Below are positions 2,548 to 32,000 of a stretch of DNA of 32,000 nucleotides, piece after piece (within the stretch, counting starts at the first letter, position 1; each line of letters starts with the position of its first letter). Below the pieces are notes generated by a model. That model ran no database searches. It saw only the letters and a program-made list of their open reading frames with translations, and was not told where the DNA came from. The position numbers and the translations under genes are program-made. The stretch is from the NCBI GenBank assembly GCA_963662645.2, contig OY759762.1, positions 1,802,004 to 1,834,003 on the forward strand, in the 5' to 3' direction. This DNA is from Acidimicrobiales bacterium. Lineage in GTDB: Bacteria; Actinomycetota; Acidimicrobiia; Acidimicrobiales; Aldehydirespiratoraceae.

Positions 2548-4469
2548 CCGACACCCAAGAACCGGCCAACGCCGCACGGCAGGCCGACACCGCACAAGCC
2601 GACACAGCCCAGGAAACTGGCGCCACGCAAGAGATCGAAGTGGCGGCCGACCCTGCGTGGCCGGCTTGGCTGAGGGAGATAGATGCACTGTTGGCGGTCC
2701 ATTCCCAGTTCGTGCTCTCGGGCAATGTGCACGACAGATACCGGCTTCCCTCGAGCGAGACGCCGCTGGCCGACACAATCTCCGCCGCCCTACTGGCAGG
2801 ACTGCGCGGGGCAGGATTCCAAGCGCTGATAGTCCATGACGTGGTCGACGGCTACCGCGTCGTCGCCGACGACCATGAGGCGGCCTGGGCCGATGCCCAT
2901 GCCCTGACCGGCCACGACCTGCGCTCGGCGCCGGCGGACGACCTCGGCCGGCTCGCCGGGGTCATCAATTCCTTCGCGGTGGGCGAAGGTCCCCGCATGG
3001 GACTGGTGCTCGAGTACGCCAGCCGTATCAGCCCGAGCATCACCGACCTGGGCCCGCGGGAGCACGCATTCTTCGCCGCCAGCCTCAAGTGCTCCCACGA
3101 GGCCCGTCCGGGCCACCACCCGTCCGCGTCGCGCGGCGCGATCTACAACCCGGTGTTCTGGGTCGTCGACCGCGAGCACGACCTCCCGGCATGGCTCACG
3201 GCGGGCAATCGGGGCATCCGGGCGATCCCGGTGCCCTGGCCCAGCCTGGCCGAACGCGAGGAGACGGCGGCGCTGCTCGCGGCCACAGCCGACGACGAGG
3301 ACCGCGACCATGCCGTCGAGACGCTGTCCACCCGCACGGAGGGCATGAGCACGGCGAGCCTGTTCGACATCGCGACACTGTTCGTCGACCAACGGATCTC
3401 CTACAGCGACGCGGAGGACGCCGTGCGGGTCTACAAGCTGGGGGCCGCCGAGAGTCCGTGGCGGCGCGGCGCAGCAACCCAGCGGCTTCGGGACCACGAT
3501 GTCGAGGGGGTGCTCAACGGCAAGGTGAAGGGACAGCAGGCCGCGGTCACCAAGGCCGCCGACATCCTCCGGCGCGCCGCGCTCGGACTGTCCGGCGCGC
3601 AGGCGGGGGCAAGCTCGAGCCGGCCCAGGGGCGTGCTGTTCTTCGCCGGGCCGACCGGCGTCGGCAAGACGCTGCTCGCAAAGGCCGTGACCGAGCTGGT
3701 CTTCGGCTCTGAGGACTCCTACGTGCGATTCGACATGAGCGAGTTCACATCCGAGCACGCCGGCGACCGGCTCGTGGGCGCTCCACCGGGCTACATCGGC
3801 TTCGAGGGCGGAGGCGAGCTCACCAACGCGGTGCGCCGCAAGCCCTACACGCTGCTGCTCTTCGACGAGATCGAGAAGGCCCATCCCCGCATCCTCGACA
3901 AGTTCCTGCAACTTCTCGACGACGGCCGCCTCACCGACGGACGGGGCACCACGGTCCACTTCTCCGACACGCTGGTCGTGTTCACCTCGAATCTCGGCAT
4001 GACCCAGCCAGCTCGCGACGGCACCGGCGTCCGCGTGCCGACGGTCACCCCCGCCGACTCCTACAACGTGATCGAGGCCCGAGTCACCGAGGAGATCCGC
4101 CGCTACTTCACCGAGGACCTCAACCGGCCCGAGTTGCTCAACCGGGTCGGCGACAACCTGGTGGTGTTCGACTTCATCCGCCGACCGGTCGCGGTGGAGA
4201 TCATCGACCTCATGCTGGGCAACATCGTTGCCCGGGTCGAGGAGTCCACCGGCACCACCATCGAGATCTCGGACCAGGCGATGGAACAGATCCACGAACT
4301 CGCCACCGCTGACTTGACATTCGGCGGGCGCGGCATCGGCAATGTGCTCGAATCGCGCTTCGTGAACCCGCTGGCGCGGGCGCTCTTCGCCCGAGAACCC
4401 TCGCCCGCTGCCAGCGTCAAGGTCATGGAGGTGTCGAGCGGCAGTGTCCCCCAAGTGGTGCTGCAGTGA
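2544..4469 (+). CDS. two-module AAA+ ATPase: degenerate N-terminal AAA-like module plus an active ClpA/ClpB D2-type module
   Basis: C-terminal half: GKVKGQQAAVTKAADILRRAALGL, Walker A GPTGVGKT, GAPPGYIGFEGGGELT, Walker B LLLFDEIEKAHP, LQLLDDGRLTDGRGTTVHFSDTLVVFTSN. This is colinear with the ClpB/ClpA D2 (AAA_2) signature and is followed by a D2-small-like tail. N-terminal half: AAA-like layout, but the P-loop position reads FVLSGNVHDRY and the Walker B position reads LVLEYA, so it is probably inactive. Confidence 0.9.
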   Translation: MTDTQEPANAARQADTAQADTAQETGATQEIEVAADPAWPAWLREIDALLAVHSQFVLSGNVHDRYRLPSSETPLADTISAALLAGLRGAGFQALIVHDVVDGYRVVADDHEAAWADAHALTGHDLRSAPADDLGRLAGVINSFAVGEGPRMGLVLEYASRISPSITDLGPREHAFFAASLKCSHEARPGHHPSASRGAIYNPVFWVVDREHDLPAWLTAGNRGIRAIPVPWPSLAEREETAALLAATADDEDRDHAVETLSTRTEGMSTASLFDIATLFVDQRISYSDAEDAVRVYKLGAAESPWRRGAATQRLRDHDVEGVLNGKVKGQQAAVTKAADILRRAALGLSGAQAGASSSRPRGVLFFAGPTGVGKTLLAKAVTELVFGSEDSYVRFDMSEFTSEHAGDRLVGAPPGYIGFEGGGELTNAVRRKPYTLLLFDEIEKAHPRILDKFLQLLDDGRLTDGRGTTVHFSDTLVVFTSNLGMTQPARDGTGVRVPTVTPADSYNVIEARVTEEIRRYFTEDLNRPELLNRVGDNLVVFDFIRRPVAVEIIDLMLGNIVARVEESTGTTIEISDQAMEQIHELATADLTFGGRGIGNVLESRFVNPLARALFAREPSPAASVKVMEVSSGSVPQVVLQ

Positions 4470-5128
4470 CGGTCGTAGCCGTCAACCGACTCCACTGGCC
4501 CGTGACCGTGCTCGGGCCGGGAAGACGGGTCGGGATCTGGGTCCAGGGATGCTCTATCGAGTGCCCGGGATGCGTCTCGCGGGACACTTGGCCGTCGATG
4601 AGCCACCGCGACCGCATCCCCGTGGCTGATCTGACCGCCCGCATCGACGCGCTGGTAGACCGCGGGGCCGAGGGGCCCATCGACGGAATCACGCTCACCG
4701 GGGGCGAGCCGTTCGATCAGGCCGACGCGCTCGACGGGCTCCTCGGAGCGCTCCGAAGCTGGCTGGACCGGCGAGGCGCGCCGTCTGCGGACCTGCTCGT
4801 GTACACCGGCTACGAGGAGTCCCAAGCCCGGGAACTCGCGGCCGGAGCCTTCGAACTCGCCGACGCGGTGATCGCCGGGCCGTACCGCGCGGGCCAACCG
4901 GGGACCCGCTGGTGGGGCTCCGGCAATCAGCGCCTGATCACCCGCGACGACGATGCCGCCGCCCGCTACCGGTCGGCACTGCGGGAGGCGCGCCCGGAGC
5001 TGCAAGTAGCCGTCGAGCAGGGGCAGGTGTTCATCATCGGCGTGCCCGGCCGCGGCGCCCTGGCCCAGGTGGAGACCCGGCTGGCCGACGCGGGAGTCGG
5101 CCTGGGGGGCGTGTCGTGGCGACCGTGA
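4466..5128 (+). CDS. NrdG/PflA-like radical SAM activating-enzyme family protein (4Fe-4S, CX3CX2C)
   Basis: GPGRRVGIWVQGCSIECPGCVSRDTW, with Cys codons at 4550-4552, 4562-4564 and 4571-4573. Then GITLTGGEPFDQ, LLVYTGY and DAVIAGPYRAGQPGTRWWGSGNQRLI, colinear with the small anaerobic-RNR activase (NrdG) pattern GC..C.GC.N..W / SGGEP / YTGY / RGS.NQR. The GTG start overlaps the upstream stop (GTGA, 4466-4469). Confidence 0.85.
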   Translation: MTVVAVNRLHWPVTVLGPGRRVGIWVQGCSIECPGCVSRDTWPSMSHRDRIPVADLTARIDALVDRGAEGPIDGITLTGGEPFDQADALDGLLGALRSWLDRRGAPSADLLVYTGYEESQARELAAGAFELADAVIAGPYRAGQPGTRWWGSGNQRLITRDDDAAARYRSALREARPELQVAVEQGQVFIIGVPGRGALAQVETRLADAGVGLGGVSWRP

Positions 5129-10813: not shown

Positions 10814-12441
10814 CCTGGATCCACCGGTGGGCGGCTGGTGTGGTGGGGGTTGGGGTTGGTTCGGCGCGTGGTGGGTTCTGGTGGGCGGCGCCGGGCGCCG
10901 CGGGCTGGTGCGGGCGTGCTGGGCCGGGGGTTGGGGCTTTGGCGGTTGGTGGCGCTGGGGGTGGTGCTGGGGGACGCCGGGCCCCTGGGTTCGGGGGTTC
11001 AGATGAGCAGGGGCAGGTTGCGGAGGTGTCGCAGCGCTCGGGTGAAGGTGTGCTGCCAGGGCCAGTCGGCGGGCAGGCGCAGGATGTGTCGTCGGCCGTG
11101 GTTGACGACGCGGCCGCAGACGGTGAGCAGCCGCTGTTTTTGTGTGTTGGCGACGGTGAGGCGGCCGGGGTGCTGGGCGCGGCCGAGGCGTGCGGTCCAG
11201 CGGGCGATGTTGTGGGCGAGCGAGGCGCAGGCGAGGTGGGCGGCGTTGGCGAAGAACCTGCCCGAGGGGCAGTGGGCGAGGCCGTTGTCTTTGAGGTCAC
11301 GAATGGCGAGCTCGACTCGGGCGTGGTCTCGGTGGTAGGCGTCGGCGGCGGCGGTGTCGAGGTCGTGGCGGTCAGTTATGAAGCAGTGGTGGCGCCAGTC
11401 GGGCCAGAGGGTTGCCTGTGCGCCTGTGAGGCGGCTGCGGCGCGCCACCAGCCGCAGCTTGCGGGGGCCGTCGGGGTCGCGGCGGCCGGTCTCGATGGTG
11501 GTCTCAGCGACCTGCGCTATGCCTTCTTCGGTGTAGGGGATCGGCGTCCAGGCTTTGTCCCCGATGGCGTCTATGGCTGCTGAGACCTTGGAGTTCTGCG
11601 GGATCGTGATCGAATACGACGCGCCGCGGGCCTCGATGGCGTCGATCATGTCATAGGAGAAGAACCCCGCGTCGGCGCGCACGGTCACCGCCGCGCCGGG
11701 AGCGAGACGACGCAGCCTCGCCAGGGTCTCGGCCACAAACCGCAGGTGGCCGCGCTGGGAGCTGCCGGACCGCATCCGGACGTGGACCATCTCGCCGGTG
11801 TCGTCTCTGGCCGCGACCAGCGGGTGATAGCCCAACACGCCGGTGTGGCCGTAGGCGGCGCCCTGCTTGGATGTGCCGTGGACCTCACAGACCGTGGAGT
11901 CCAGATCCACCGTGATCTCCCCAGCGTCGGGCGCCGCGCCCAAAGACCACGCCCGGCCGAGCGCCAGCTCGCCGGCGCGGTCGAGCTGGCGCACGTGTCC
12001 CCACGTGAACGAGCGCAGCCATGTCCCCAAAGTCGACGGCGCCAACGGCTCAAACGGCAGCACCGCCCCAGCAGAGCCCGCCCGCAGCCTGCTCGCGTCG
12101 TCGATGAACGAGCCGCCCACCAGCATCGACGCCGCCACCGACAGCGCCTTGGCCCCCGAGCCGCGCCCCGACCCGGGCGGGCGCACCGCCGCGTCGATCA
12201 GCGCCTCCAGCCCGAGGCGGTCCATCACCGTGCCCGCCAGCAACAGCCCCGCATCCGCCACCAAAGACCCGTCGTCGAAACGAACCTCCAACCCGTCGAT
12301 CCCACCCGATACGCTGCCCACAGGAAGTGCCTCCTCACGTGGCCGGAATGACCGTTACTGCAAACAGCATTCTCCCATGTCAGGAGGCCTTTCCGGTGGA
12401 CGCGCCAACCCCACAGCGCTCACCGCGCCGGTGGATCCAGG
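10814..12441 (-). mobile_element. IS1380-family insertion sequence, apparently intact (1628 bp)
   Basis: Perfect 14-bp terminal inverted repeats: cctggatccaccgg (10814-10827) and ccggtggatccagg (12428-12441). They are flanked by a 5-bp direct repeat CTCAG (10809-10813 and 12442-12446). The element contains a single transposase ORF. Size, CC-initiated inverted repeats and a 4-5 bp duplication fit the IS1380 family. Confidence 0.85.
10999..12321 (-). CDS. IS1380-family DDE transposase
   Basis: 440 aa. GAYGHTGVLGYHPLV, VTVRADAGFFSYDMIDAIEARGASYSITI, HHCFITD and the Y-x2-R-x3-E signature YHRDHARVELAIRDLK. GTG start with GAGGAGG 8 nt upstream. Confidence 0.9.
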   Translation of the reverse strand: MGSVSGGIDGLEVRFDDGSLVADAGLLLAGTVMDRLGLEALIDAAVRPPGSGRGSGAKALSVAASMLVGGSFIDDASRLRAGSAGAVLPFEPLAPSTLGTWLRSFTWGHVRQLDRAGELALGRAWSLGAAPDAGEITVDLDSTVCEVHGTSKQGAAYGHTGVLGYHPLVAARDDTGEMVHVRMRSGSSQRGHLRFVAETLARLRRLAPGAAVTVRADAGFFSYDMIDAIEARGASYSITIPQNSKVSAAIDAIGDKAWTPIPYTEEGIAQVAETTIETGRRDPDGPRKLRLVARRSRLTGAQATLWPDWRHHCFITDRHDLDTAAADAYHRDHARVELAIRDLKDNGLAHCPSGRFFANAAHLACASLAHNIARWTARLGRAQHPGRLTVANTQKQRLLTVCGRVVNHGRRHILRLPADWPWQHTFTRALRHLRNLPLLI

Positions 12442-19363: not shown

Positions 19364-20911
19364 ATGACAAGCACAAACCAGAACAAGATCCGCCGACCAA
19401 AGTACGAACCCACCGCCCGGGAGCGATTAGTCCTCGATCAGGTCGAGAACCCCCGCTACGACCGGCAGATCGTCAACGGCCTCGACCCGTTCATCGACGA
19501 GGGCGCGCCCGCCGACATGGAGGGCTTCTACACCCAGGAGGAGCTGGCTGAACTGGGGAAGCTCCGCGGCACCGACCGCGACGTCGAGGCCCGGATGCCG
19601 GTGAAGATAACCCGCCACTACTTCGAGATGGCCAAGGCCAGCCCGGCGCTGCAGACGCTCGTCAAGGCCTCCGCCGACGAGACGGCCAACCTCGAGGGCG
19701 ACGAGGACCCCGCCGGCCAGCTCGACTACAGCCCTGTCGAGGGCCTTCTCCACAAGTACGAGATGGCCCTGCTGTACGTGATATCCACCTGCTCGGCCCA
19801 CTGCCGGTTCTGCTATCGCGAGGAGCTGATAGCCCGCAAGGACATCGCCAGGGCCGACGGCACCGTCAAGAAGAAAGGCCTCGCCCAGCTCAAGGAAGTG
19901 ACCGACTACATCAGGGCCCACAACGCCGCAGTCGAGGCCAACGGGGGCGAGCACCCCGAGACCGGCCGGCCCAAGCTGCGCGAGATCCTGCTCTCGGGCG
20001 GCGATCCGATGGTGCTGCCCAACTCCAAGCTGGCCGGCTGGTTCACCGCGCTGGCCGAGGCCGGGGCGGAGGTGATCAGAGTGGGCACAAAGGAGCTGGC
20101 CTTCCATCCCGACCGCTTCGACGACGCGTTCATGTCGATGCTCGACCGGTTCCACGAGGTCTACCCGGACGTGGCCCTCCGTCTGATGGTCCACTTCAAC
20201 CATCCCGACGAGCTGCTGACCAAGGCAAGCGACGGAAGCTACGTCAAGAGCGAGCACGGCCAGTACCAGTGGCACCCCCGCGTCAAGCGGGCCGTGGAGG
20301 CGGTCACCTCCAGGGGCTGGATCTGCGTCGAGAACCAGTCGCCGATCATCCGGGGCGTCAACGACGATCCCGACGCCCTCAGGATCCTGCAGCGGACTCT
20401 CAAGGCGGCCCGCATCGAGAACCACTACTTCTTCGGCGGGCGCAACATCGTCGCCTACAAGGCGTTCAACGTGCCTGTCGAGACCGCCTGGCGCATCCTC
20501 AACGAGTCCCAGCAGGGACTCTCGGGGGTGGAGGCCCACGCCCGGCTCACCCTGGTGCACTTCAAGGGCAAGACCGAGGTGGCCACGGTCACCGACGAGC
20601 CGATCCCGGGCGTGCCCGGCGCTGAGAACGGCGTGGTGGTGTTCAAGGTGCTCCGCAGCCCGGCCGATGCAGGCGACCGGGGCAAGACGGCCATCGTCGG
20701 GCGCAACCCCGAGGCGCTGTGGTTCGACGACTACGACGACAGGGTCATCATCGACGAGGCCGGCCTGTTCAACTTCCAGAGGCCCCAACGGGTGCGGATA
20801 CCCGTCGCCCGGGAGAGCTCAACCGCCGCGGGCACTCGCCGCACGCCGGCACAGCGCCACCGCGACGAGGAGCTCCACAAGCACCGCACCGCGCCCGCGT
20901 CCAGCACCTAG
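19364..20911 (+). CDS. KamA-family radical SAM protein (lysine 2,3-aminomutase-like), divergent
   Basis: VKITRHYFEMA, GLLHKYEMALLYVISTCSAHCRFCYR (CX3CX2C), ILLSGGDPMVL, VHFNHPDEL, NQSPIIRGVNDD and FKGKTEV aligning with the GGGK PLP-lysine block. It also has an insertion of roughly 20 aa after the Cys motif and a basic, low-complexity C-terminal tail. Confidence 0.85.
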   Translation: MTSTNQNKIRRPKYEPTARERLVLDQVENPRYDRQIVNGLDPFIDEGAPADMEGFYTQEELAELGKLRGTDRDVEARMPVKITRHYFEMAKASPALQTLVKASADETANLEGDEDPAGQLDYSPVEGLLHKYEMALLYVISTCSAHCRFCYREELIARKDIARADGTVKKKGLAQLKEVTDYIRAHNAAVEANGGEHPETGRPKLREILLSGGDPMVLPNSKLAGWFTALAEAGAEVIRVGTKELAFHPDRFDDAFMSMLDRFHEVYPDVALRLMVHFNHPDELLTKASDGSYVKSEHGQYQWHPRVKRAVEAVTSRGWICVENQSPIIRGVNDDPDALRILQRTLKAARIENHYFFGGRNIVAYKAFNVPVETAWRILNESQQGLSGVEAHARLTLVHFKGKTEVATVTDEPIPGVPGAENGVVVFKVLRSPADAGDRGKTAIVGRNPEALWFDDYDDRVIIDEAGLFNFQRPQRVRIPVARESSTAAGTRRTPAQRHRDEELHKHRTAPASST

Positions 20912-23003: not shown

Positions 23004-24050
23004 CTAGAGAGGTTTGCGAGCCAGGAAGCAGTACAGGGGCGTGAAGATCCCTGATCGGCCGCCGGCGGTGTAGGCGCTGGCGGTCTGATCCAGCATCTTG
23101 ATGACATCGGCGGAGCCCTTCGGCAGGATCCTCAGCAACTCGGCCAGCCTGGATCCCCCTCTTGCCGTCTTGCGGCCCAGTGGAACCCCGATCAGGGAAT
23201 TTCCCAACGTCCGGCTCCACGTCTCTAGGGGCTGATACCACGGCGTGGCCGGACCGTTCTCCGCGACGACGCCCCGATCCATCCCCTCGATGAGCTCGAA
23301 CCCTACCGATTCGAGCATCCGGTCCACCTCGACCGTCGTTGCGATGTCCTTGAGCGCGATGCCGTGCATCAAGTCCTGCTTCATGGCGAGATGCCGGTCG
23401 TCGTCGGGATCGAACCTGTCCGTCAGGCACATCTCCTGACCCCAGAAGAGGGCTCCGGGCTTCAGCACGCGGTAGATCTCGGCGAACGCGCTCGCCTTGT
23501 CCGGTGCATGGCATGTCGACTCGATCGCGTAGCCGCGGTCGAACGTGCCGTCCGCGACGGCCGACATGTCCATGAAGCTGCACACCAGGTAGTCGACCAT
23601 GTGGTCGAGCCCGGCTGCGGCGTTCAACGACTTCGCCCTGTCCATCTGGGTCTCATTGATGTTGACCCCGACGACCCTGACGCCGGCCTCCGAGACGACC
23701 CGGCGCATCGGGCCGCCGACCCCGCAACCGATATCGACCACCGTCATGCCCTCGCGCAGCTCCAGCTTGCCGATCATCAGCCGCTGGTGCCGGGTCTTGG
23801 AGTCCTGCACGCTCTCACCGGGCGACAGCGGTGCGAAGTGCAGGGACTCGCCCCAACCCCATACCATCAGCTCGTTGCTGATGTCGTAGTACTCCTTGAC
23901 GGTCTCGGTGTGGTCATAGTCGGCCGCGTCGGAACCTCGCCCCGACGCTCGGTCGAGCCATCCGTCGAAACGCCGTATCCGGCGGGCGACTCCCCCCTCG
24001 ACCCGGTCTGCCGCCCTAAGTCCGGTGAGTACCCGTAACAGCTTGGACAT
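23004..24050 (-). CDS. sterol 24-C-methyltransferase (ERG6/SMT)-like SAM-dependent methyltransferase
   Basis: Start taken at Met32 of the track ORF (ATG, complement of 24048-24050), 10 nt after the ctaG stop. It is colinear with ERG6/SMT1 as I recall them: YYDISNELMVWGWGESLHFAPL, VVDIGCGVGGPMRRV, YAIESTCHAPD, IYRVLKPGA, PWYQPL, GGRSGIFTPLYCFLARKP. Confidence 0.85.
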   Translation of the reverse strand: MSKLLRVLTGLRAADRVEGGVARRIRRFDGWLDRASGRGSDAADYDHTETVKEYYDISNELMVWGWGESLHFAPLSPGESVQDSKTRHQRLMIGKLELREGMTVVDIGCGVGGPMRRVVSEAGVRVVGVNINETQMDRAKSLNAAAGLDHMVDYLVCSFMDMSAVADGTFDRGYAIESTCHAPDKASAFAEIYRVLKPGALFWGQEMCLTDRFDPDDDRHLAMKQDLMHGIALKDIATTVEVDRMLESVGFELIEGMDRGVVAENGPATPWYQPLETWSRTLGNSLIGVPLGRKTARGGSRLAELLRILPKGSADVIKMLDQTASAYTAGGRSGIFTPLYCFLARKPL

Positions 24051-24060
24051 CCGCTCAAGC

Positions 24061-24975
24061 CTAGAGGCGGGGCTCGGAGGGCGGGGGGCCGAGGCGTTCG
24101 AACTCGGCCTCGACATCGGCGGTGGTGAGAGTGTTGGCGGCAAGGCGCCGGCGGCGCTCGCTGGCGTCAGCGTGCCGCTGGGCGGCCGAGTAGCGGAAGA
24201 AGCGGATGGCGATCAGGGTCCACAGGTACAAGCCGCCCAGCACCTTCATGATCGCGCCAGCGGCCTGCTGGTCGGCGGCCACCGAGATGCCGAACAGGCG
24301 CTGGGCATGGTCGTAGACCGGGTACACCGAACCCTCGGCGAAGGTCAGCCAGGCAGCCGGCACGGTGGGAATGATCGACATGGTGAACAGGTACACCATC
24401 TTCATCGGCTCTGACAGGTGCAGCTCCCTCAGCGGTCCGACCACCGGCGTCCACATGGCCAGAGCGCTGGCGAACATCAGCAGGTGCATGGCGTAGTGGA
24501 AGGGACCACTGCGGACGGACAGCTCCACCACAGTGTTCCAGTGCATAAGCGCCTGTAAGGCGTTGAACGCCACCCCGGCCACCAGCGGGTGCACCAGGCG
24601 GCGGACGACCCCGGCGGTGCGGGAGCCTTCGACCAGGATGAGCCGGGCCAGCCATTCGGGCACCGCCATCAGCAGCAGCGGCGGCACCACGAAGCTGATC
24701 AGCAGGTGCTGCACCATGTGAACCGAATAGAGGTACTCCTCGGCGATGTCGTGCATGGGCCAGTCCGCCGAGACCCACAGCAGGGCAACACCGGCAACGA
24801 AGCACAGCCGTTGGCGGCCGGTGACCGCGGCGGTGCCCGCAGGGCCAGCCGGGCCGGCTGCGGGAGCCACCACCCGGACCACGTAGAGGCCGAGGCCGAC
24901 GATCGCGGCGACCATCAGCCACACCTCGGGGTGAAATTGGAAGCGCCAAGCGTCGGTCGCGGCCAGCGCGCCCAT
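24061..24975 (-). CDS. ctaG: cytochrome c oxidase assembly factor CtaG (Caa3_CtaG family membrane protein)
   Basis: Polytopic membrane protein with HMVQHLLISFVVPPLLL, AFNALQALMHW, HYAMHLLMFASALAMWTPVVGP and DQQAAGAIMK. Confidence 0.8.
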   Translation of the reverse strand: MGALAATDAWRFQFHPEVWLMVAAIVGLGLYVVRVVAPAAGPAGPAGTAAVTGRQRLCFVAGVALLWVSADWPMHDIAEEYLYSVHMVQHLLISFVVPPLLLMAVPEWLARLILVEGSRTAGVVRRLVHPLVAGVAFNALQALMHWNTVVELSVRSGPFHYAMHLLMFASALAMWTPVVGPLRELHLSEPMKMVYLFTMSIIPTVPAAWLTFAEGSVYPVYDHAQRLFGISVAADQQAAGAIMKVLGGLYLWTLIAIRFFRYSAAQRHADASERRRRLAANTLTTADVEAEFERLGPPPSEPRL

Positions 24976-25014
24976 AGCTCAGGTCAAGGCGTCGGTCGCG
25001 GCTGGCGCGCCCAC
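24948..25014. repeat. imperfect duplication of about 28 nt of the ctaG start region
   Basis: aagcgtcggtcgcggccagcgcgcccat (24948-24975, containing the ctaG ATG) versus aaggcgtcggtcgcggctggcgcgcccac (24986-25014, carrying GTG in place of ATG). Confidence 0.8.
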
Positions 25015-25016
25015 CG

Positions 25017-25373
25017 CTAGACCCAGAACTCGAAGACGGTGAGCGTGACGAGATACACCCCGACCGCCAGGATCAGCCCGGCGGTGAACATCCGGCCGAA
25101 CAGCTTGTTGTCGAAGCGCAGGTGCATGAACCAGGTAGCCACCAAATAGAACTTGACGATCATCATGAAGATGAGCGACGGCACCAGCGCCACGCCCCAG
25201 TCGACCACCGACTCGAAGTATGTGAACACTTCGAGCGCGGTGATCACCGCTAGGACGACGGCAATCTTGACGTAGGCCCAGTCCGAAGGATGGGCGTGGC
25301 CCTCTTCGTCGTGATGCTCGGCAACCTCGTCGGCTTCGGGCTCGGAGTGCTCGGAGGTAGCGGTGTCGCTCAT
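25017..25373 (-). CDS. cytochrome c oxidase subunit IV (small prokaryotic COX4 type)
   Basis: 118 aa. Acidic, His-rich N-terminus followed by three hydrophobic helices (YVKIAVVLAVITALEVFTYF, LIFMMIVKFYLVATWFMHLRFD). It lies immediately downstream of subunit III. Confidence 0.7.
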   Translation of the reverse strand: MSDTATSEHSEPEADEVAEHHDEEGHAHPSDWAYVKIAVVLAVITALEVFTYFESVVDWGVALVPSLIFMMIVKFYLVATWFMHLRFDNKLFGRMFTAGLILAVGVYLVTLTVFEFWV

Positions 25374-25395
25374 CGGATCGTGTCGCTCATGGGTA

Positions 25396-26028
25396 TCAGT
25401 CGGCGGGGATCAGGTAGATGACGGTGAAGATGAAGATCCACACGATGTCCACGAAGTGCCAGTAGAGGCCGACGATCTCGACCGTCTCGGCGTTGCGCTG
25501 GGTGAGCTTGCCCTTCAGCGAGGCCACGAACAGCGACATCAGCATCACGATGCCGAGGCTCACGTGCACTCCGTGGAAGCCGGTGAGGGTGAAGAAGGCA
25601 CTGCTGGCCGGGTTGGTGGTGAAGGCCACGCCCTCCCGGACGAAGCTGGTGAACTCATACACCTGCCCGCCGATGAACACGCCGCCCAGCAGGGCGGTGG
25701 CCAGCAGCCAGGTGCGGCCGGCCTCGGCCTCGCCGCGGGTCACCGCGGACAGGGCCAGCACCATCGTCAGCGAACTCATCAGCAGCACGAACGAGCTGAC
25801 CGAGGTGAACGGGATGTCGAACACGTCCGTGGGCAGGGTGCGGCCGTTGCCGCGGGTCTTGTACAGCAGGTAGGTGGAGATCAGACCGCCGAAGAGCAGG
25901 CACTCCGAGCCCAGGAACACCCACATGGCCAGCTTGGTGTGCGACAAGCCGGTGGTGGTGGCGTGCTCGTCGTGGCCACCTTCGTCGGCGACGTGGCCCG
26001 GGTCGGCAGTCACAGCTTCAGCGCTCAT
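25396..26028 (-). CDS. ctaE: cytochrome c oxidase subunit III
   Basis: Start taken at Met69 of the track ORF (ATG, complement of 26026-26028). LAMWVFLGSECLLFGGLI, FFTLTGFHGVHVSLG, VGLYWHFVDIVWIFIFTVIY. Confidence 0.9.
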   Translation of the reverse strand: MSAEAVTADPGHVADEGGHDEHATTTGLSHTKLAMWVFLGSECLLFGGLISTYLLYKTRGNGRTLPTDVFDIPFTSVSSFVLLMSSLTMVLALSAVTRGEAEAGRTWLLATALLGGVFIGGQVYEFTSFVREGVAFTTNPASSAFFTLTGFHGVHVSLGIVMLMSLFVASLKGKLTQRNAETVEIVGLYWHFVDIVWIFIFTVIYLIPAD

Positions 26029-26137
26029 GACTGGTCTCTCCGGCTGGCGGGTCCTGTCACCGGCGCGGCCTGGCGGCGCGAGCGCCGCCATTCCCTGCCC
26101 CGGCGCCACCCCCCGGCCTTGCCGATCGCGCCCGCGC

Positions 26138-28135
26138 TCATGGCTGGTCGCCCTCCGTCGAATCGTCGGCGGCAACAGGATCGGTGGCCTCGGCCTCGTC
26201 GTCGCTGTGGTCGTGGGCGGCGTCGGGGTCATCTACGGGTTCCAGCGCCCACGAATACAGCGAGGCGATCGTCAGCAGGGCGCCGATCAGGGCGAGCCAG
26301 AGGTTGAAGATCAGGCCGTAGCCGATGAGGGGCAGCCCGACGGCCACCGCCAGGGGCCAGAACGAGGGCGACGGCAGATGCACGCCGGTCGCCTCGCCGG
26401 TCTGGGCGGCCTCCTCGACGGTGGCGACCCGCACCACCTTGCCCTCGTCGTTCTCGGCGTACTTGGTGTGCCACCACTCGTCGCGGCCGTGCACCTGCGG
26501 CACCGTGTCGAAGTTGTGCACCGGCACCGGCGACGGGATCGACCATTCGAGGGTGCGGCCGTCCCATGGGTCCGGGCCCGGCGGCGGCAGGTGTGGCGCG
26601 TCGCGCTTGGACTTGACCACGTTCCACATGAAGATCACCACTGCCACCGCGATCAGCAGCGAGCCGACGGTGGCCGCCATGTTCCAGAACTCGAAGCCGT
26701 AACCCCGGGCGTAGGTGTCGATGCGGCGCGACATTCCCTGCAGGCCCAGGATGTGCATCGGACCGAAGGTGAGGTTGAAGCCCACCAGCATGATCCAGAA
26801 GTTCCAGTTGCCGAGCCGCTCGTTGAGGAAGTGGCCCCACACCTTGGGCCACCAGAAGTACAGGCCGGCGAACAGGCCGAGCACGCCGCCGCCGAAGATC
26901 ACATAGTGGAAGTGGGCCACGATGTAGTAGGTGTCGGTCTGCTGGGTGTCGGCGGGCGCCACCGAATGGGTCACGCCGGACAGGCCGCCGATGGTGAACA
27001 TGGCCACCGTGGCCACCGCGAATTTCATGGCCACGGTGAACCGCAGCTTCCCGCCCCACATCGTGGCAAGCCAATTGAGAACCTTCACCCCCGTCGGCAC
27101 TGCGATGAACATGGTCGATAAGGAGAAGGCGGCCACCGATATGGGGCCGATGCCCGACACGAACATGTGGTGGGCCCACACGCCCCAGCCCATGAAGCCG
27201 ATGGCTATGCCCGAGAACACCATGAAGTCGTAGCCGAACAGGGGCTTGCGGCTGAAGGTGGGGATCACCTCGGACACCACCCCGAACGCGGGCAGGATGA
27301 TGATGTACACCTCGGGATGGCCGAAGATCCAGAACAGGTGCTGCCACAGCAGCGGATCGGCGCCGGCGTCGGGATTGAAGAACTGGGCGTCGAAGAGCCG
27401 GTCGAACATCAGCAGGAACAGCGCCACGGTGATCACCGGCAGCGCGAACAGCAGCAGGAACTGGGTGATCAGCAGCATCCACGTGAGCACCGGCATGCGC
27501 ATCAGCGTCATGCCGGGCGCCCGCATGTTGAGGCAGGTGACGATCAGGTTCACCGCCGACACCAGCGAGGCGATGCCCAGGATCTGCAGGCCGATGGCGT
27601 AGAAGTCCACGCCGTGGCTGGGCGAGAAGGCCACGCCGCTGTTGGTCGAGTAGCAGAACCAGCCGCAGTCGGCCCCGCCGCCGCCCACCATCCACGAGGT
27701 GTTCAGGAAGATGGCGCCCGACAGCCAGATCCAGAACGACAGAGCGTTGAGGCGGGGGAAGGCGACGTCGCGAGCGCCGATCTGCAGGGGGATGAAGTAG
27801 TTCGAGAAGGCCGCGGCCAGCGGCATGATGAACAGGAACACCATGGTGACGCCGTGCATGGTGTACACCTGGTTGTAGACGTCGGCGCTGAGCACCGAGC
27901 CTTCCGGCGCGGCCAGCTGCAGGCGGATCAGCAGGGCCTCGACGCCGCCGACCAGGAAGAAGAACATGGCCGAGGCGCCGTAGAGGATCCCGATGCGCTT
28001 GTGGTCGACAGTGCTGAGCCAGTCGCGCCAGCCCCGGCCCCCCTGGGGGCGGGTGAACACGCCGAGGGGCCGCTCGGCGTAACGGACGGAATCGCCGGGG
28101 CCGAGCTCGAGCGGAGTCTTCTCGGTTATGGCCAT
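26138..28135 (-). CDS. ctaD: cytochrome c oxidase subunit I (haem-copper oxidase, A-type) with a fused C-terminal two-helix CtaF-like extension
   Basis: DHKRIGILY, YTMHGVTMVFLFIMP, WIFGHPEVYIIILP, GVWAHHMFVSG, VAHFHYV. All canonical metal ligands are present. The extra C-terminus reads HLPSPSFWPLAVAVGLPLIGYGLIF... Confidence 0.95.
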   Translation of the reverse strand: MAITEKTPLELGPGDSVRYAERPLGVFTRPQGGRGWRDWLSTVDHKRIGILYGASAMFFFLVGGVEALLIRLQLAAPEGSVLSADVYNQVYTMHGVTMVFLFIMPLAAAFSNYFIPLQIGARDVAFPRLNALSFWIWLSGAIFLNTSWMVGGGGADCGWFCYSTNSGVAFSPSHGVDFYAIGLQILGIASLVSAVNLIVTCLNMRAPGMTLMRMPVLTWMLLITQFLLLFALPVITVALFLLMFDRLFDAQFFNPDAGADPLLWQHLFWIFGHPEVYIIILPAFGVVSEVIPTFSRKPLFGYDFMVFSGIAIGFMGWGVWAHHMFVSGIGPISVAAFSLSTMFIAVPTGVKVLNWLATMWGGKLRFTVAMKFAVATVAMFTIGGLSGVTHSVAPADTQQTDTYYIVAHFHYVIFGGGVLGLFAGLYFWWPKVWGHFLNERLGNWNFWIMLVGFNLTFGPMHILGLQGMSRRIDTYARGYGFEFWNMAATVGSLLIAVAVVIFMWNVVKSKRDAPHLPPPGPDPWDGRTLEWSIPSPVPVHNFDTVPQVHGRDEWWHTKYAENDEGKVVRVATVEEAAQTGEATGVHLPSPSFWPLAVAVGLPLIGYGLIFNLWLALIGALLTIASLYSWALEPVDDPDAAHDHSDDEAEATDPVAADDSTEGDQP

Positions 28136-28136
28136 A

Positions 28137-29363
28137 TCACTCCACCTGGGTCGCTTCGATTATCCAGTCGGCGGGCCGCTCGCCCAAGCCTGAAAGGTAC
28201 GCCACCAGGTCGTCGATCTGCTGCTCGCTGAGGTCGAGGTCGGGCATGCCCCGGTACTGCTCGCCGGGCACGGTGTAATTCTCCTTGAGAGCGTTGGGGT
28301 CGCGCAGCCACGCCTCCAGGTCCGCGCGGTTGAGCGATCCGTCGGCGTTGTAGGTGTTGAAGATCCCGCCCGCGAAGGTGCTGCGGCCGGCGAAGTGGGT
28401 CAGGTTCGGCGCGGCCCCTGAGGCCTGGTCGGCGCTCTCGAAGACATCGTCGTTGAGTCCTTCCACGACATGGCAGGAGGTGCAGATGCCCGAGAACACC
28501 TCCATGCCGGCCAACGCCTCCGGGTCGGTGGGCTCCACCGCGTCGGCGCTGGTGCGGTCCACCCACGCCTGGAAGTCGGCTGGTGTGAGCGCCACCGCCT
28601 GCATCCTCATGCGCGAGTGCGACAGGCCGCAGAACTCGGTGCACTGCCCGAAGTAGAACCCGGGATCGGAGGCCTCGATCTTCCAGGGCGAGAAGCGATT
28701 GGGCACGGCGTCGCGCTTGCCGTTGAGCGCCGGGATCCAGAAGGAGTGGATCACGTCGCGCGAGGTGATGATCAGCTCGACCTCCTCGTCGGTGGGGATC
28801 ACCATCTGGCCGGAAGTGACGATGTCGGCGGGGGGCAGCGTCTTGGCGTCGCCGTGGGCCCGCAGGTCGGCCAGATCCACCTGGTCGGAGAAGTAGTAGC
28901 GGAACTCCCACCACCACTGGTTGCCCACCACCACGATGATCGGCGCCCACTCGACGGAGCGGTCGTCGATGGCGACCATCATGGTGTTGTCCTCGGTGGC
29001 GTCCACGGTGGGAAGCGACCACAACATGATGCCGGCCACCGCGATCATGGTTACGAGGAATCCAACCGTCCAGCCGACCTCCAGCGGGACGTGGCCGTGG
29101 GTCTGCGCAGGCCAGTCGTCGTCGCCTTCGTAGGTCTTGACCCGGTTTTTCCAGATGAGCCAGACCATGGCGATCGTGATGCCCACGAACACCACCGCCG
29201 CGATCCAGAACACCGGCAGAACGCCCCGGCTGTGCAGCTCCCTGGCGATCGGGCCCTGGGGCGCGAACGTGTCCAACTCTGCGTCGGATGCGCAGCCGGT
29301 GGCCACGGCCGCGCCCAGCAGGACCAGCACCCCGGGAAGGAGTCGGCGGGCGGCCGTTCGCAT
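28137..29363 (-). CDS. ctaC: cytochrome c oxidase subunit II with a C-terminal cytochrome c domain (caa3-type), lipoprotein signal
   Basis: CuA site HSFWIPALNGKRD...CTEFCGLSHSRM and a haem c site CTSCHVV. Signal peptide MRTAARRLLPGVLVLLGAAVATGC. I favour ATG 29363 (stop-G-ATG coupling to the upstream gene); the track start is GTG 29381. Confidence 0.9.
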   Translation of the reverse strand: MRTAARRLLPGVLVLLGAAVATGCASDAELDTFAPQGPIARELHSRGVLPVFWIAAVVFVGITIAMVWLIWKNRVKTYEGDDDWPAQTHGHVPLEVGWTVGFLVTMIAVAGIMLWSLPTVDATEDNTMMVAIDDRSVEWAPIIVVVGNQWWWEFRYYFSDQVDLADLRAHGDAKTLPPADIVTSGQMVIPTDEEVELIITSRDVIHSFWIPALNGKRDAVPNRFSPWKIEASDPGFYFGQCTEFCGLSHSRMRMQAVALTPADFQAWVDRTSADAVEPTDPEALAGMEVFSGICTSCHVVEGLNDDVFESADQASGAAPNLTHFAGRSTFAGGIFNTYNADGSLNRADLEAWLRDPNALKENYTVPGEQYRGMPDLDLSEQQIDDLVAYLSGLGERPADWIIEATQVE

Positions 29364-29364
29364 C

Positions 29365-30162
29365 TCAGCCACCGTGCTCACCGCCGGCCGGCTCGCCGGA
29401 CTCCTCGTGAGTCTCGTCTTCGTGATGCCCGAAGTCCCGCTCGCCGGCCACTGCGGCCAGCACCCCGCCCACCAGGAGCAGCAGCGCGGCCACCGTCCCC
29501 AGGACTCGGATGAGGCGACGACCGAGTCCGGGCCGGGCCGCGTAGACCCAGGCGCCGCCCAGTATGAGGGCGGACACCACGCCGGCCACGGCCACCGCCT
29601 CCATCTGCGACACCGTCAAGAGGATCCGCGAGGCTGCCAGCACGATCACGCCGACCGCCAGCGCACCGACGACGGGGATCTCGATGGGGGCCATGATCCG
29701 GTTGCGCAGCTCGCGGTTGGCCGCGGCGTCGCCGGTGGCGCGGTCGGCCCATGCGTCCATGGTCCACTCCACCAGCGACAGGGTGACCAGGGCCAGGCCG
29801 AGCACGAAGACCATCGGATGCAGCACCAGCCCTATAGCGGTCGCGCCCACGCCGAAGGAGGCGACCACCGGCCAGAAACTCGCAGCCACGGGCTGGTCGG
29901 TCATCACTTCGGCCAAGTTCTGAAGATGGGCCTGGGCGGCCGCGTCGGCGTCCCGGAACGACACCAGCACCAGACTGATAGTCAACGAGACCCCGGCCAG
30001 CGCCACCAGCAGGCCGTAGCCGATGTGGTCGCCGACACCGCCTTTCCATCCCAGCGACATCGGTCCGACGTGATCGCCGCCAGTGGTGTAGCCGTAGACG
30101 AGCGCGGCCGCGGTGAACGCTGCGAACAGTCCGAAGAAGAGCTTGAATCCGGTGGTGAACAT
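29365..30162 (-). CDS. polytopic membrane protein containing a CtaF-like two-helix hairpin
   Basis: 265 aa with about 7 hydrophobic helices. Residues 94-136 (ASFWPVVASFGVGATAIGLVLHPMVFVLGLALVTLSLVEWTMD) align without gaps to the CtaD C-terminal extension (PSFWPLAVAVGLPLIGYGLIFNLWLALIGALLTIASLYSWALE). Acidic, His-rich C-terminal tail. Confidence 0.6.
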   Translation of the reverse strand: MFTTGFKLFFGLFAAFTAAALVYGYTTGGDHVGPMSLGWKGGVGDHIGYGLLVALAGVSLTISLVLVSFRDADAAAQAHLQNLAEVMTDQPVAASFWPVVASFGVGATAIGLVLHPMVFVLGLALVTLSLVEWTMDAWADRATGDAAANRELRNRIMAPIEIPVVGALAVGVIVLAASRILLTVSQMEAVAVAGVVSALILGGAWVYAARPGLGRRLIRVLGTVAALLLLVGGVLAAVAGERDFGHHEDETHEESGEPAGGEHGG

Positions 30163-30178
30163 GCTCGCCTACTGGTCC

Positions 30179-30763
30179 CTACTTGGTGATGAAGAGGACG
30201 TACCAGACGAGGAAGTAGCACAGCACCAACATGTGCCAGTAGGCGGCCGAGGCCTGAACCCCGTGGGCCAGCTCCCGGCCGAAGGGCCCCATCAGCGAGC
30301 GGATGGTGGTCACCGCAATCATGGCCATCCCGCCCACAAGCATGGCGATGAACGAGCCCGTCACCGCGTAGAACAGCAGCTCGGCCCTCCCGCCGTCGAT
30401 TGCGAAGGCGGTGTCCTGGTACACGAACCAGAACTGGTTGACAACCGCCGCGCCGAACATCAGGGTGACTCCGAGCGCGATGAACCCGTGAGGCCGGTCG
30501 CCGGTCCGAGCGGCCTGCACCGCCCACTGAACGGTCACCATCGACAGCACCAGCGTCATCATCATCATCCCGGCCGGACCTAGCTCTACGCTGCCCTCCG
30601 GGAACCACTCCTGGCCGGTGGCCCGAGCCATCTGACGCTGCTGGACGTACAACGACACCAGCGCGGCGAAGGCCATGAAGGCCGCCCCGGTGGCCAGCAG
30701 GGCACCGACCACGACGGTGCGGGGCCGGGTCGCCTCCGCGGCGGGCAGAGCCGTCGTTCTCAC
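30179..30763 (-). CDS. divergent cytochrome oxidase subunit III-like membrane protein
   Basis: 194 aa with 5 hydrophobic helices. The C-terminus SAAYWHMLVLCYFLVWYVLFI parallels the YWHFVD..W motif of subunit III. The GTG start overlaps the upstream stop (GTGA, 30760-30763). Confidence 0.6.
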   Translation of the reverse strand: MRTTALPAAEATRPRTVVVGALLATGAAFMAFAALVSLYVQQRQMARATGQEWFPEGSVELGPAGMMMMTLVLSMVTVQWAVQAARTGDRPHGFIALGVTLMFGAAVVNQFWFVYQDTAFAIDGGRAELLFYAVTGSFIAMLVGGMAMIAVTTIRSLMGPFGRELAHGVQASAAYWHMLVLCYFLVWYVLFITK

Positions 30764-32000
30764 GGTGCCTCGCTCCGGGGCTCTGGCGTGCGCAGGGCGG
30801 AGACGGCCGCAGACACCGCCGCAGCCAACCCGGCCGACACCAGGACGGAACCAATGAAATTGACCAGGTTGAGCACCGTGTTGCCGTCCAGCGCGAGGGC
30901 CATGAGATCCGGGTCATCGACAATGAAACCTGAGATCAGATCGGAGATCACCAGCAGGCCGCCGCCGGCGCCCAGCAGCAGGATCGCGCCCCGGCCCACG
31001 ACTTGGGAGATGGGGCAGAACAACAGCTGATGCGACCAGTTCACGAGCGCGGCCACGCCGGCGATGAGACCGGCAGCAACAACGCCGTGGAACACGGCCC
31101 AGGTGGCGGTGGTCTCAAGCAGGTCGAGAGGCTCGATGACTCGCAGCGCACCCACCAGCGCCGCAGCACCCAGGAGCTTCAGGGCTGCACCGGCGCCCAC
31201 CATCCGGGCATCGAGGAGCCGGTCCCGCGTCTTCGAGCCCCGCAGCACCAACTCGGCAGCACCGCCGGCCAGCGCCACCACCGGCAAGACCGCGGCCAGG
31301 CCGAAGGCCACGTAGACCAGCCCGTCGCGGAGGTCTTGGGGAGCGGTGAAGTAGTCCTGTGACCAGCCGCCCACGGCCAGCAGTCCGAACAGGCCCACGA
31401 TGATGGTGACGGCCTCCGGGCGGCTGGAGCGGGCCCCGGTCGCGGCGCCGACCGCCTCAATGGCGATGCCGAGCACCGGCACGGCCATGATGTACACGGC
31501 GGGCTGCTCCACGAGCCAGTCGAGCTGGCGCCAGATGTCGGGGCTCTCGGCCCGGCCGAAGGCGATTGCCGGCCGGCCCCGCAAGTCCGCATAGATCACA
31601 ACGATGTTGGCGATGGCGACCGGCAGAGTGAACAGCCACACGGCTGCGGCCACGAGCATCGACCACGAGAAGGGCGGCACGTCCAGCAGGCTCATGCCCG
31701 TCTGGCGCAGCGAGATCACCGTAGTGGCCACAGACACCGCGCCCACAAGCAGCGCCACGATCACCATGCCGGTGCCGAGCAGCGTGAGCGCCATGGCGTC
31801 GCTCTCGTTGCCGGTCACGCCGTCGATGGCGCCCCAGCCCCCGCCCGCGAGCACCGACACCACGACGATGACCGCACCGATCAGCCAAGACCAGAACGAC
31901 GCCAGCGCGGCCCGGGGGAAGGCGAGATTGCCCGCCCCGACCTGGGACGGCACCACGGCCATGGCCACGCCGAGCAGCAGGGGCAGCACCACCAGCAACA
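30760..32000 (-). CDS. haem-copper oxidase subunit I paralogue lacking the CuB ligands (5' end beyond the window)
   Basis: Aligns without gaps to the CtaD in this window: GNLAFPRAALASFWSWL versus RDVAFPRLNALSFWIWL; WLVEQPAVYIMAVP versus WIFGHPEVYIIILP; GGWSQDYF versus GVWAHHMF. The reading frame is open to the window edge. Confidence 0.8.
   Translation of the reverse strand, partial: LLVVLPLLLGVAMAVVPSQVGAGNLAFPRAALASFWSWLIGAVIVVVSVLAGGGWGAIDGVTGNESDAMALTLLGTGMVIVALLVGAVSVATTVISLRQTGMSLLDVPPFSWSMLVAAAVWLFTLPVAIANIVVIYADLRGRPAIAFGRAESPDIWRQLDWLVEQPAVYIMAVPVLGIAIEAVGAATGARSSRPEAVTIIVGLFGLLAVGGWSQDYFTAPQDLRDGLVYVAFGLAAVLPVVALAGGAAELVLRGSKTRDRLLDARMVGAGAALKLLGAAALVGALRVIEPLDLLETTATWAVFHGVVAAGLIAGVAALVNWSHQLLFCPISQVVGRGAILLLGAGGGLLVISDLISGFIVDDPDLMALALDGNTVLNLVNFIGSVLVSAGLAAAVSAAVSALRTPEPRSEAP

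Follow-up and report, generated by a model that had tools for sequence, protein, structure and literature searches.

Functional subunits I of the haem-copper oxidase (HCO) superfamily have at least 12 transmembrane (TM) helices, six His residues (two for the low-spin haem, one for the high-spin haem and three for CuB/FeB) and a Tyr (Sousa et al. 2011, PMC3084760), and the standard HCO classifier throws out sequences without the six His residues (PMC3084760). The nitric oxide reductases (NORs) of the superfamily (cNOR, qNOR, eNOR, bNOR, sNOR, gNOR and nNOR) have the haem ligands and three metal-site His residues and are without the active-site Tyr; one metal-site His is replaced by Asp in gNOR, while cNOR and qNOR add a Glu (PMC11214002). 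A duplicated COX3 is also known in some cox operons (bioRxiv 10.1101/2020.03.01.968255). The 32,000-nt stretch of Acidimicrobiales DNA analysed here (the window) carries the genes of a caa3-type cytochrome oxidase in one minus-strand row at 24.0-32.0 kb, together with three further genes directly upstream of ctaC, which code for a subunit I paralogue (I'), a subunit III paralogue (III') and a protein of 265 amino acids (aa), X. These three are collectively termed the trio.

The trio is an ancient, selectively maintained and redox-dead replica of the membrane core (I/III(/IV)) of an A-type HCO, and represents a new cofactor-less variant within the superfamily which fits none of the families compared. 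In all Acidimicrobiia sampled it forms one tightly coupled row with ctaCDEF-ctaG and follows ctaB directly. The trio includes no subunit II paralogue and therefore has no point of electron entry. The original prediction of three same-strand oxidase-subunit paralogues at this position, made from the DNA alone, is borne out by Pfam, BLASTP and hhalign.

30760..>32000, minus strand: I'; the C-terminal 412 codons lie inside the window and ~102 N-terminal codons beyond its end
31492..31509, minus strand: EQPAVY of I', replacing GHPEVY of CtaD (CuB-His / Glu / cross-link-Tyr motif)
31348..31365, minus strand: WSQDYF of I', replacing WAHHMF of CtaD (CuB His-His motif)
31087..31089, minus strand: H304 of the I' fragment, in the helix X motif FHGV; the sole His left at a canonical position, and clade-specific
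30179..30763, minus strand: III', 194 aa with five helices; its start overlaps the I' stop
29365..30162, minus strand: X, 265 aa, a seven-helix, apparently chimeric membrane protein

Cofactor ligands, fold and ancestry of I'

The window I' matches the Pfam family PF00115 (COX1) with an E-value of 8e-28 and aligns with the CtaD of the window at 26% identity (E 2e-25), with 37 gaps over 339 columns and not without gaps as had been thought. Its N-terminus was taken from orthologues, which are ~514 aa in full length and up to 94% identical to the window protein. Ligand positions were compared between 81 I' orthologues and 74 co-encoded CtaD proteins. His occupies all six canonical positions in 74/74 CtaD proteins, whereas the corresponding residues in I' are Tyr (79) or His (2), Gln (79), Gln (81), Asp (47) or Pro (34), a gap, and His (35) or Asn (39); five of the six canonical His residues are lost in the window-clade I'. 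The orthologue 5' ends allowed the haem axial positions to be read: the haem-a His of helix II is Tyr in 79/81 I' sequences, while the helix X motif VAHFHYV of CtaD is shrunk to V--FH(G)V. The CuB motif changes reported earlier, GHPEVY to EQPAVY and WAHHMF to WSQDYF, are real both in the alignment and on reading the sequence. At the Glu position of the former motif Ala (55) or Gln (26) is found in the 81 orthologues, and the His partner of the cross-link Tyr position is Gln. Retention of the cross-link Tyr itself, also proposed previously, stands for the window clade (Y75/F6 among the 81) but not family-wide, where Phe (52), Tyr (28), Ile (23) and Leu (12) occur (n = 118). Shifted His ligands were looked for as an alternative, and no alignment column has His in >50% of the 81 I' sequences.

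Residues of both proton channels are likewise changed in I'. The D-channel Asp is replaced by Asn, Gly, Ser or Ala, its Asn by Ala and the gating Glu by Ala, Gln or Thr, while the K-channel Lys has become a hydrophobic residue or Ser. The haem-propionate Arg pair is gone from I' and absent everywhere examined. Because I' is without the residues that ligate CuB and the two haems, without the propionate Arg pair and without those of either proton channel, it is, to judge from its sequence, non-catalytic, which extends the earlier argument that a protein unable to bind CuB would not reduce O2.

A profile search with I' against 1.84 billion cluster representatives identified 297 clusters at E<=1e-30, and the His tally was taken on the best 150 of these (all at least 193 bits), 125 of them full length. 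Among these 125 full-length 50%-identity representatives, none of the six canonical His residues is kept in 77, one in 28, two in 17, three in three and four in one. A further 118 I' relatives include 104 without any canonical His, and at CuB positions 1 and 2 His is replaced by Gln in most I' members. Family-wide, I' conserves only residues that real subunit I conserves too (Pro, Gly, Trp, AFPR and similar), and no new polar signature is common to all family members. W236, W288 and F377 (bovine numbering), aromatics of the scaffold, are retained by the window clade but are not conserved across the family. The window clade also has invariant charged and polar residues (R98, D262, E266, Q267, Q316, D317 and R388) and motifs (YADLRGR, GGWSQDYF and ALRVIEP), which map to the predicted outer face and loops and to the depth of the former haem/CuB pockets.

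The AlphaFold2 (AF2) model of the I' orthologue P0001 has 12 TM helices (pLDDT 81.5, pTM 0.86) and resembles A-type subunit I in Foldseek with TM-scores of 0.75-0.79, with confidence falling below 50 at P0001 residues 315-321, the former CuB His-His site. The full-length 12-helix fold is shared with A-type subunits I such as those of Mycobacterium smegmatis (6HWH/6ADQ) and Bacillus subtilis aa3-600 (6KOB), and the PDB sequences best matched by the I' profile (E 2e-46) belong to A-type subunits I of actinobacteria and Bacillus. The structural motifs in common are AFPR, the W236 and W288 equivalents and PxxY, whereas the cofactor ligands, propionate Arg residues and D/K-channel residues of the A-type proteins are unconserved in I'. 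By the published criteria, the COX1 fold with 12 helices is thus present in I' and the six His residues are not (PMC3084760). Against the CtaD_CoxA equivalog TIGR02891, I' scores 141 bits (cut-off 670.75), and both I' and III' fall far under every equivalog cut-off in NCBIfam. Affiliation with a known NOR or quinol-oxidase family was also considered and does not fit, as NORs keep the metal ligands and are without the Tyr, the reverse of the I' pattern.

Against the I' profile, the CtaD proteins encoded in the same genomes score a median of 154 bits and the CtaD of M. smegmatis 162 bits. Because local CtaD scores no higher than mycobacterial CtaD, the duplication which gave rise to I' is, on this sequence comparison, old. 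That I' arose recently, by duplication of CtaD within the lineage, is unsupported, the local CtaD being no closer to the profile than its mycobacterial counterpart. In public annotations I' appears under the names 'cbb3-type cytochrome c oxidase subunit I', 'cytochrome o ubiquinol oxidase subunit 1' or 'cytochrome c oxidase subunit I+III' (P0072, P0081, P0272, P0262, P0427, P0416 and P0463, among others). Such oxidase-type labels are wrong, since I' is without haem or copper ligands. In the full-text literature searched, neither a description of a ligand-less subunit I paralogue nor a precedent for a retained non-catalytic paralogue in the HCO superfamily was found.

III' and the chimeric protein X

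III' matches PF00510 (COX3) with an E-value of 1e-10 and a score of 42.4 bits, above the gathering cut-off of 23.8, and aligns with CtaE in hhalign (probability 95.7%, E 1e-8) over residues 28-192, including all five helices, in agreement with its earlier description as subunit III-like. Its score against the NCBIfam model aa3_CtaE_Actin (NF050119) is 48.5 bits (cut-off 190). Accessory subunit III homologues are, like III', COX3-family proteins encoded beside an oxidase and extra to its genuine subunit III, but III' differs from them in being always accompanied by a ligand-less subunit I paralogue and X. NorE of the cNOR clusters, another extra subunit III homologue, presumably resembles III'.

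The window X has no match in Pfam or NCBIfam, and its 314 homologues are all annotated as 'hypothetical'. Modelling of X by AF2 with 34 homologues gave seven helices at a pLDDT of 59 and a pTM of 0.35, too poor for a fold search. Three parts of the protein can be told apart.

29755..29886, minus strand: hairpin of X, residues 93-136; two helices (SFWP...W) homologous to the CtaD C-terminal extension
29419..29715, minus strand: anchor module of X, residues 150-248; three helices homologous to the membrane anchor of cta-linked auracyanin-like cupredoxins
29365..29442, minus strand: C-terminal tail of X, ERDFGHHEDETHEESGEPAGGEHGG; acidic and His-rich, at the place where the cupredoxin domain follows in the homologues

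Residues 93-136 of X share 12 identities over 44 positions with CtaD residues 589-632 (BLASTP E 0.002), and hhalign supports the homology (probability 88%, E 3e-6). The CtaF-like hairpin recognised originally, on a count of 12 identities over 41 positions, thus holds for these residues only, with residues 150-248 representing a cupredoxin anchor. The hairpin shows weak PDB profile matches to the N-terminal hairpin of COX3, TM helices 1-2 of seven-helix subunit III (E 0.02-0.16), and also weakly resembles TM helices 3-4 of CtaF. CtaF (PF12270) is the Pfam family most matched by X relatives (11/34, best E 6e-4), all under the gathering score of 26.9 bits. The CtaD extension aligned with the X hairpin itself matches PF12270 positions 75-125, whereas X has three further helices of other origin. 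In hhalign, no signal was obtained for X against CtaE, COX4_pro or III'. The CtaD extension (~589-632 plus tail, window 26138-26340) is a fused two-helix SFWP element, PF12270-like and weakly like TM helices 1-2 of COX3. In this lineage the first two helices of seven-helix subunit III appear to have been split off and fused to subunit I, beside a five-helix CtaE. The X hairpin and the five-helix III' would together reproduce what the CtaD extension and the five-helix CtaE form in the real enzyme.

Residues 150-248 of X match open reading frames (ORFs) located after ctaG in nine loci without the trio (hmmsearch E 1e-15 to 1e-8), and align with the cupredoxin anchors in hhalign at 34% identity (probability 98.6%, E 9e-16). 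The X anchor shows the cupredoxin-anchor motifs R..P...P and SR(I/V)(L/F)L, the presence of which at 34% identity implies, as far as sequence can tell, that protein contacts are retained. The anchored proteins of the trio-less loci bear Cupredoxin_1, Copper-bind or SoxE domains and resemble auracyanin and amicyanin. Examples with one or two cupredoxin domains are located at L139:9689-10639, L156:4965-5699, L133:3798-4811, L140:10761-11552 and L145:10918-11799. These proteins, to which no database name is attached, are likely the tethered electron donors of the trio-less caa3 oxidases. The three-helix anchor of X 150-248 is shared with membrane-anchored blue copper carriers (auracyanin, sulfocyanin SoxE and amicyanin-type), but their copper domain is replaced in X by a 25-residue acidic, His-rich tail. 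X ends 25 residues past the anchor, with no cupredoxin match in Pfam and no type 1 Cu ligands (His, Cys, His, Met). From the positive loop between helices 6 and 7, and from how the homologous hairpin is oriented, the tail is predicted to be extracytoplasmic. The trio-containing loci showed no separate anchored cupredoxin.

Because its hairpin half matches the CtaD extension and its C-terminal half the cupredoxin anchor, X is apparently a chimera of a CtaF/subunit-III-hairpin half and the anchor of a blue-copper carrier whose copper domain has been lost. This ties the trio to the tethered auracyanin-like carrier of the sister operons and suggests a route for the gain and loss of donor modules around A-type oxidases. 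In a distant Actinomycetota metagenome-assembled genome (MAG), X (L084:11236-12363) is 376 aa long, with a C-terminal domain of ~110 extra residues and no GWKGGVGDH loop. Interpretation of the extra domain as a degenerate cupredoxin intermediate is unsupported, with no phmmer match to cupredoxins and no Pfam match.

Linkage of the trio to the caa3 operon and its evolutionary rate

28137..29381, minus strand: ctaC, genuine subunit II fused to cytochrome c (Pfam COX2 and Cytochrom_C)
26138..28135, minus strand: ctaD, genuine subunit I with all six His, Glu, Tyr and a two-helix C-terminal extension
~25396..26028, minus strand: ctaE, genuine five-helix subunit III (PF00510, E 5e-19); start approximate, from homology
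25017..25373, minus strand: subunit IV (COX4_pro; PF03626, E 7e-9)
24061..24975, minus strand: ctaG, Caa3_CtaG assembly factor (PF09678, E 2e-38); ends the conserved row

The genuine CtaD scores E 2e-152 against PF00115, 27.7 bits against PF12270 and 680 bits against TIGR02891 (cut-off 670.75), and CtaC has the lipobox VATGC. The junctions read in the sequence agree with those given originally, namely a GTGA overlap between I' and III' (30763-30760), a TAG, 16 nt and an ATG at 30162 between III' and X, and TGA-g-ATG between X and ctaC (29367-29361). The ctaC start may be the ATG at 29363, one base past the X stop, or the GTG at 29381, with a 17-nt overlap. A terminator and promoter scan of 23800-32000 remained at chance level, with no signal above chance between the trio and ctaC. 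Acidic, His-rich low-complexity tails occur at the COX4_pro N-terminus (25270-25373), the CtaE N-terminus (25940-26028), the CtaD C-terminus (26138-26240) and the X C-terminus (29365-29442), which might reflect proteome composition or metal handling.

When one genome per GTDB species was scanned, matches turned up in 92 species, from which 79 loci were recovered. All of the carriers are Acidimicrobiia-type MAGs, namely Ca. Aldehydirespirator(aceae), 'Acidimicrobiaceae' sponge bins, Microthrix and unclassified Actinomycetota, and the named MAG families among I' carriers include Ilumatobacteraceae and Microthrixaceae. Every complete locus has the order ctaA(-) / ctaB I' III' X ctaC ctaD ctaE cox4 ctaG, the trio lying between ctaB (haem O synthase, divergent from ctaA) and ctaC, so that its placement before ctaC, as seen in the window, is general among these species. 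Five very distant I' representatives show the same operon order. A second profile search, seeded by distant members, gave 706 90%-identity clusters at E<=1e-20, those with names belonging to Ilumatobacteraceae and Actinomycetota MAGs.

The reverse test was made by scanning metagenome contigs with a CtaD profile in place of the I' profile. The trio is present in 32/32 operons of the closest CtaD clade (at least 1096 bits, with at least 2 kb upstream) and absent in 15/15 full-length operons of the next clade (<=1004 bits, at least 3.2 kb upstream), and both groups have a caa3-type CtaC. I' and III' overlap by 1 or 4 nt in 63/78 loci, the III'/X spacing is 5-12 nt in 63/78, and X and ctaC mostly overlap. 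In the operons sampled, the trio was never found away from ctaCDEF; the tie between the two seen here is one of gene co-linearity and coupling. Orphan ctaD genes of the same CtaD clade occur at L123:6893-9010 and L141:6896-~8900, with the 7 kb on each side free of other cta genes. A second catalytic subunit I that stands alone may exist in some of these organisms.

The trio ORFs are intact in all loci. Across 12 orthologue pairs the median dN/dS is 0.30 for I', 0.10 for III' and 0.18 for X, as compared to 0.10 for CtaD, 0.10 for CtaE and 0.17 for CtaC. The mean pairwise distance of I' is 0.72 against 0.18 for CtaD, a rate about four times faster over long distances and similar to those of CtaG and CtaA. 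Rate covariation by the mirror-tree method, with background regression, was computed for 12 proteins at 67 loci and gave 0.55 for I'-CtaB, 0.49 for I'-DUF2017 and -0.40 for I'-CtaD. This measure was judged confounded, as fast proteins are grouped whatever their function, and was left unused as evidence on partners.

Possible roles of the trio and other features of the window

The trio may well be, with a likelihood approaching an even one, a redox-dead pseudo-oxidase serving as a permanent, non-catalytic structural partner of the caa3 oxidase. I', III' and X would assemble together into a pseudo-oxidase, which would stay bound to the catalytic caa3 monomer as a pseudo-heterodimer or supercomplex adaptor and would supply its shape, surfaces for docking and an interface to lipid or protein, with no chemistry of its own. 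Such a partnership is suggested because the family-wide conservation of I' is limited to the fold residues of real subunit I, because the whole subunit architecture has been duplicated coherently, including the split subunit III hairpin, and because the X anchor retains sequence-specific motifs. The fold-only conservation of I' fits a shape-dependent role and argues against a channel or new enzyme, but it fails to separate a structural partner from an assembly factor. By way of analogy, non-catalytic paralogues are found in energy-converting complexes, namely F1 alpha/beta and the bc1 core proteins (peptidase-like but inactive)/mitochondrial processing peptidase (MPP), and also in NifEN/NifDK. 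In all three, as in the trio, a chemistry-less duplicate is kept under selection beside an active paralogue; for the trio, association with the active enzyme is putative.

Several observations weigh against a structural partnership. The position of the trio after ctaB, opposite ctaA, suits an assembly role equally well, and the evolutionary rate of I' is unusual for a stoichiometric core partner. The clade-invariant motifs of I' could be the mark of a specific ligand or of a partner other than caa3. Both low-spin haem His residues (helix II and helix X) are kept in 16/125 representatives, the CuB set being kept in none, and given this minority the I' family may not be uniformly cofactor-free.

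A role as assembly scaffold or chaperone, in which I', III' and X would transiently mimic the I/III core apart from the finished enzyme, is rather less likely. In one version of this explanation, viewed with the same reserve, the trio would help to pass haem a from CtaA/CtaB to CtaD, or would mature or dock CtaC, by likeness to NifEN beside NifDK. The location between ctaB, divergent from ctaA, and ctaC at every locus speaks for it, as does a rate above that of the catalytic subunits which is typical of accessory factors and like that of CtaG and CtaA, and a review of bacterial oxidase assembly expects further factors beyond those identified (PMC9145763). A cofactor scaffold should, however, keep its binding residues, while I' is without the axial His, the propionate Arg pair and the CuB His residues; the trio resembles neither Surf1, Sco, CtaG and CtaM nor any assembly family of Pfam or NCBIfam, and three coordinated paralogues copying a whole subunit architecture exceed the usual needs of a chaperone. 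The clade-invariant charged residues at the former haem/CuB depth and in the outer loops, the Gln that most members have instead of His at CuB positions 1 and 2, and the retention in X of an anchor which tethers an electron carrier in its relatives would suit an independent, neofunctionalised complex that is only co-regulated with the oxidase, such as a conduit for ions or solutes, a sensor or a platform on which another respiratory complex docks. This is improbable, as the polar residues are unconserved family-wide, where fold residues alone are conserved, the D- and K-channel residues are dismantled and the trio never stands apart from ctaCDEF in the operons sampled.

Haem might also be bound through non-canonical ligands, Tyr97/His in the window clade or a bis-His pair in a subset, and I' would then act as an electron store or relay. 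The specific exchange of the helix II His for Tyr (79/81), the one helix X His kept in the window clade, the 16/125 representatives with both low-spin His residues and the window-clade aromatics W236, W288 and F377 are compatible with this, but in half of the close relatives Asn or some other residue stands at the helix X His position, the propionate-binding Arg pair is missing throughout, the aromatics vary across the family and no subunit II or cytochrome partner is at hand for electron delivery, making such a role very improbable. Finally, catalytic-residue loss is also the expected product of decay, and the public names of I' include 'cbb3-type' and 'cytochrome o ubiquinol oxidase subunit I'; derivation of the trio as decaying pseudogenes of a duplicated oxidase, or as a known NOR or quinol-oxidase variant, is nevertheless effectively excluded. 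When pseudogenes were looked for, the ORFs were intact at all loci with dN/dS of 0.10-0.30, the gene order and coupling are conserved down to ~30% sequence identity and the AF2 fold of I' is confident, while NORs show the reverse pattern of retained metal ligands and no Tyr (PMC11214002) and the NCBIfam scores lie well under every cut-off.

If the structural partnership is generalised, all Acidimicrobiia, with their abundant marine, freshwater, soil and sponge-symbiont lineages among them, would run caa3 as an obligate complex with a cofactor-free I'/III'/X pseudo-oxidase, the fossil of a second oxidase and its tethered blue-copper donor with a structural or organising role; this broader proposal is put forward tentatively. 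If true, the obligate complex would be the first described pseudoenzyme module in the HCO superfamily. The trio in any case offers a natural experiment on what the I/III scaffold does beyond chemistry, such as haem-free folding, lipid or partner binding and oligomer or supercomplex formation, and the loss in the I' family is graded, with low-spin haem ligands in some members and none in most. Because I' is labelled as an oxidase subunit I, oxidase gene counts in Acidimicrobiia MAGs are inflated and respiratory capacity is over-counted. HCO surveys drop sequences without the six His residues, which may explain why a family of several hundred clusters stayed unremarked in the literature searched.

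The members with both low-spin His residues are P0147, P0157, P0159, P0161, P0162, P0164, P0165, P0168, P0170, P0172, P0178, P0189, P0202, P0207, P0216 and P0257. They occupy the same operon (e.g. L086:9001-10635), and P0161, P0189 and P0202 keep both helix X His residues. This minority suggests stepwise cofactor loss or a haem-only subgroup.

Elsewhere in the window, an intact DDE transposase (DDE_Tnp_1_4, E 2e-44) is encoded at 11002-12321 on the minus strand, a mobile element amid a housekeeping region. Three co-directional genes on the plus strand at 1339-5125 code for a 402-aa protein without Pfam match, a 641-aa ClpB-like AAA_2 ATPase and a 220-aa Fer4_12 radical-SAM-activase-like protein. 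This gene set starts in a stretch of lower GC content (0.61 vs ~0.69) and is possibly an acquired island or defence-type module. A 515-aa ORF at 19364-20908 on the plus strand has no Pfam match, and the same is true of its 517-aa counterpart in L001, the closest complete genome locus. At L001:1-2006, ~8 kb past the window end, a GPP34 (Golgi phosphoprotein 3-like) and a P450 gene are found, which would fit a sponge-associated relative of Ca. Aldehydirespirator as the source of the window, GPP34 having recently been linked to sponge symbiosis in Actinobacteriota (PMC11706023).

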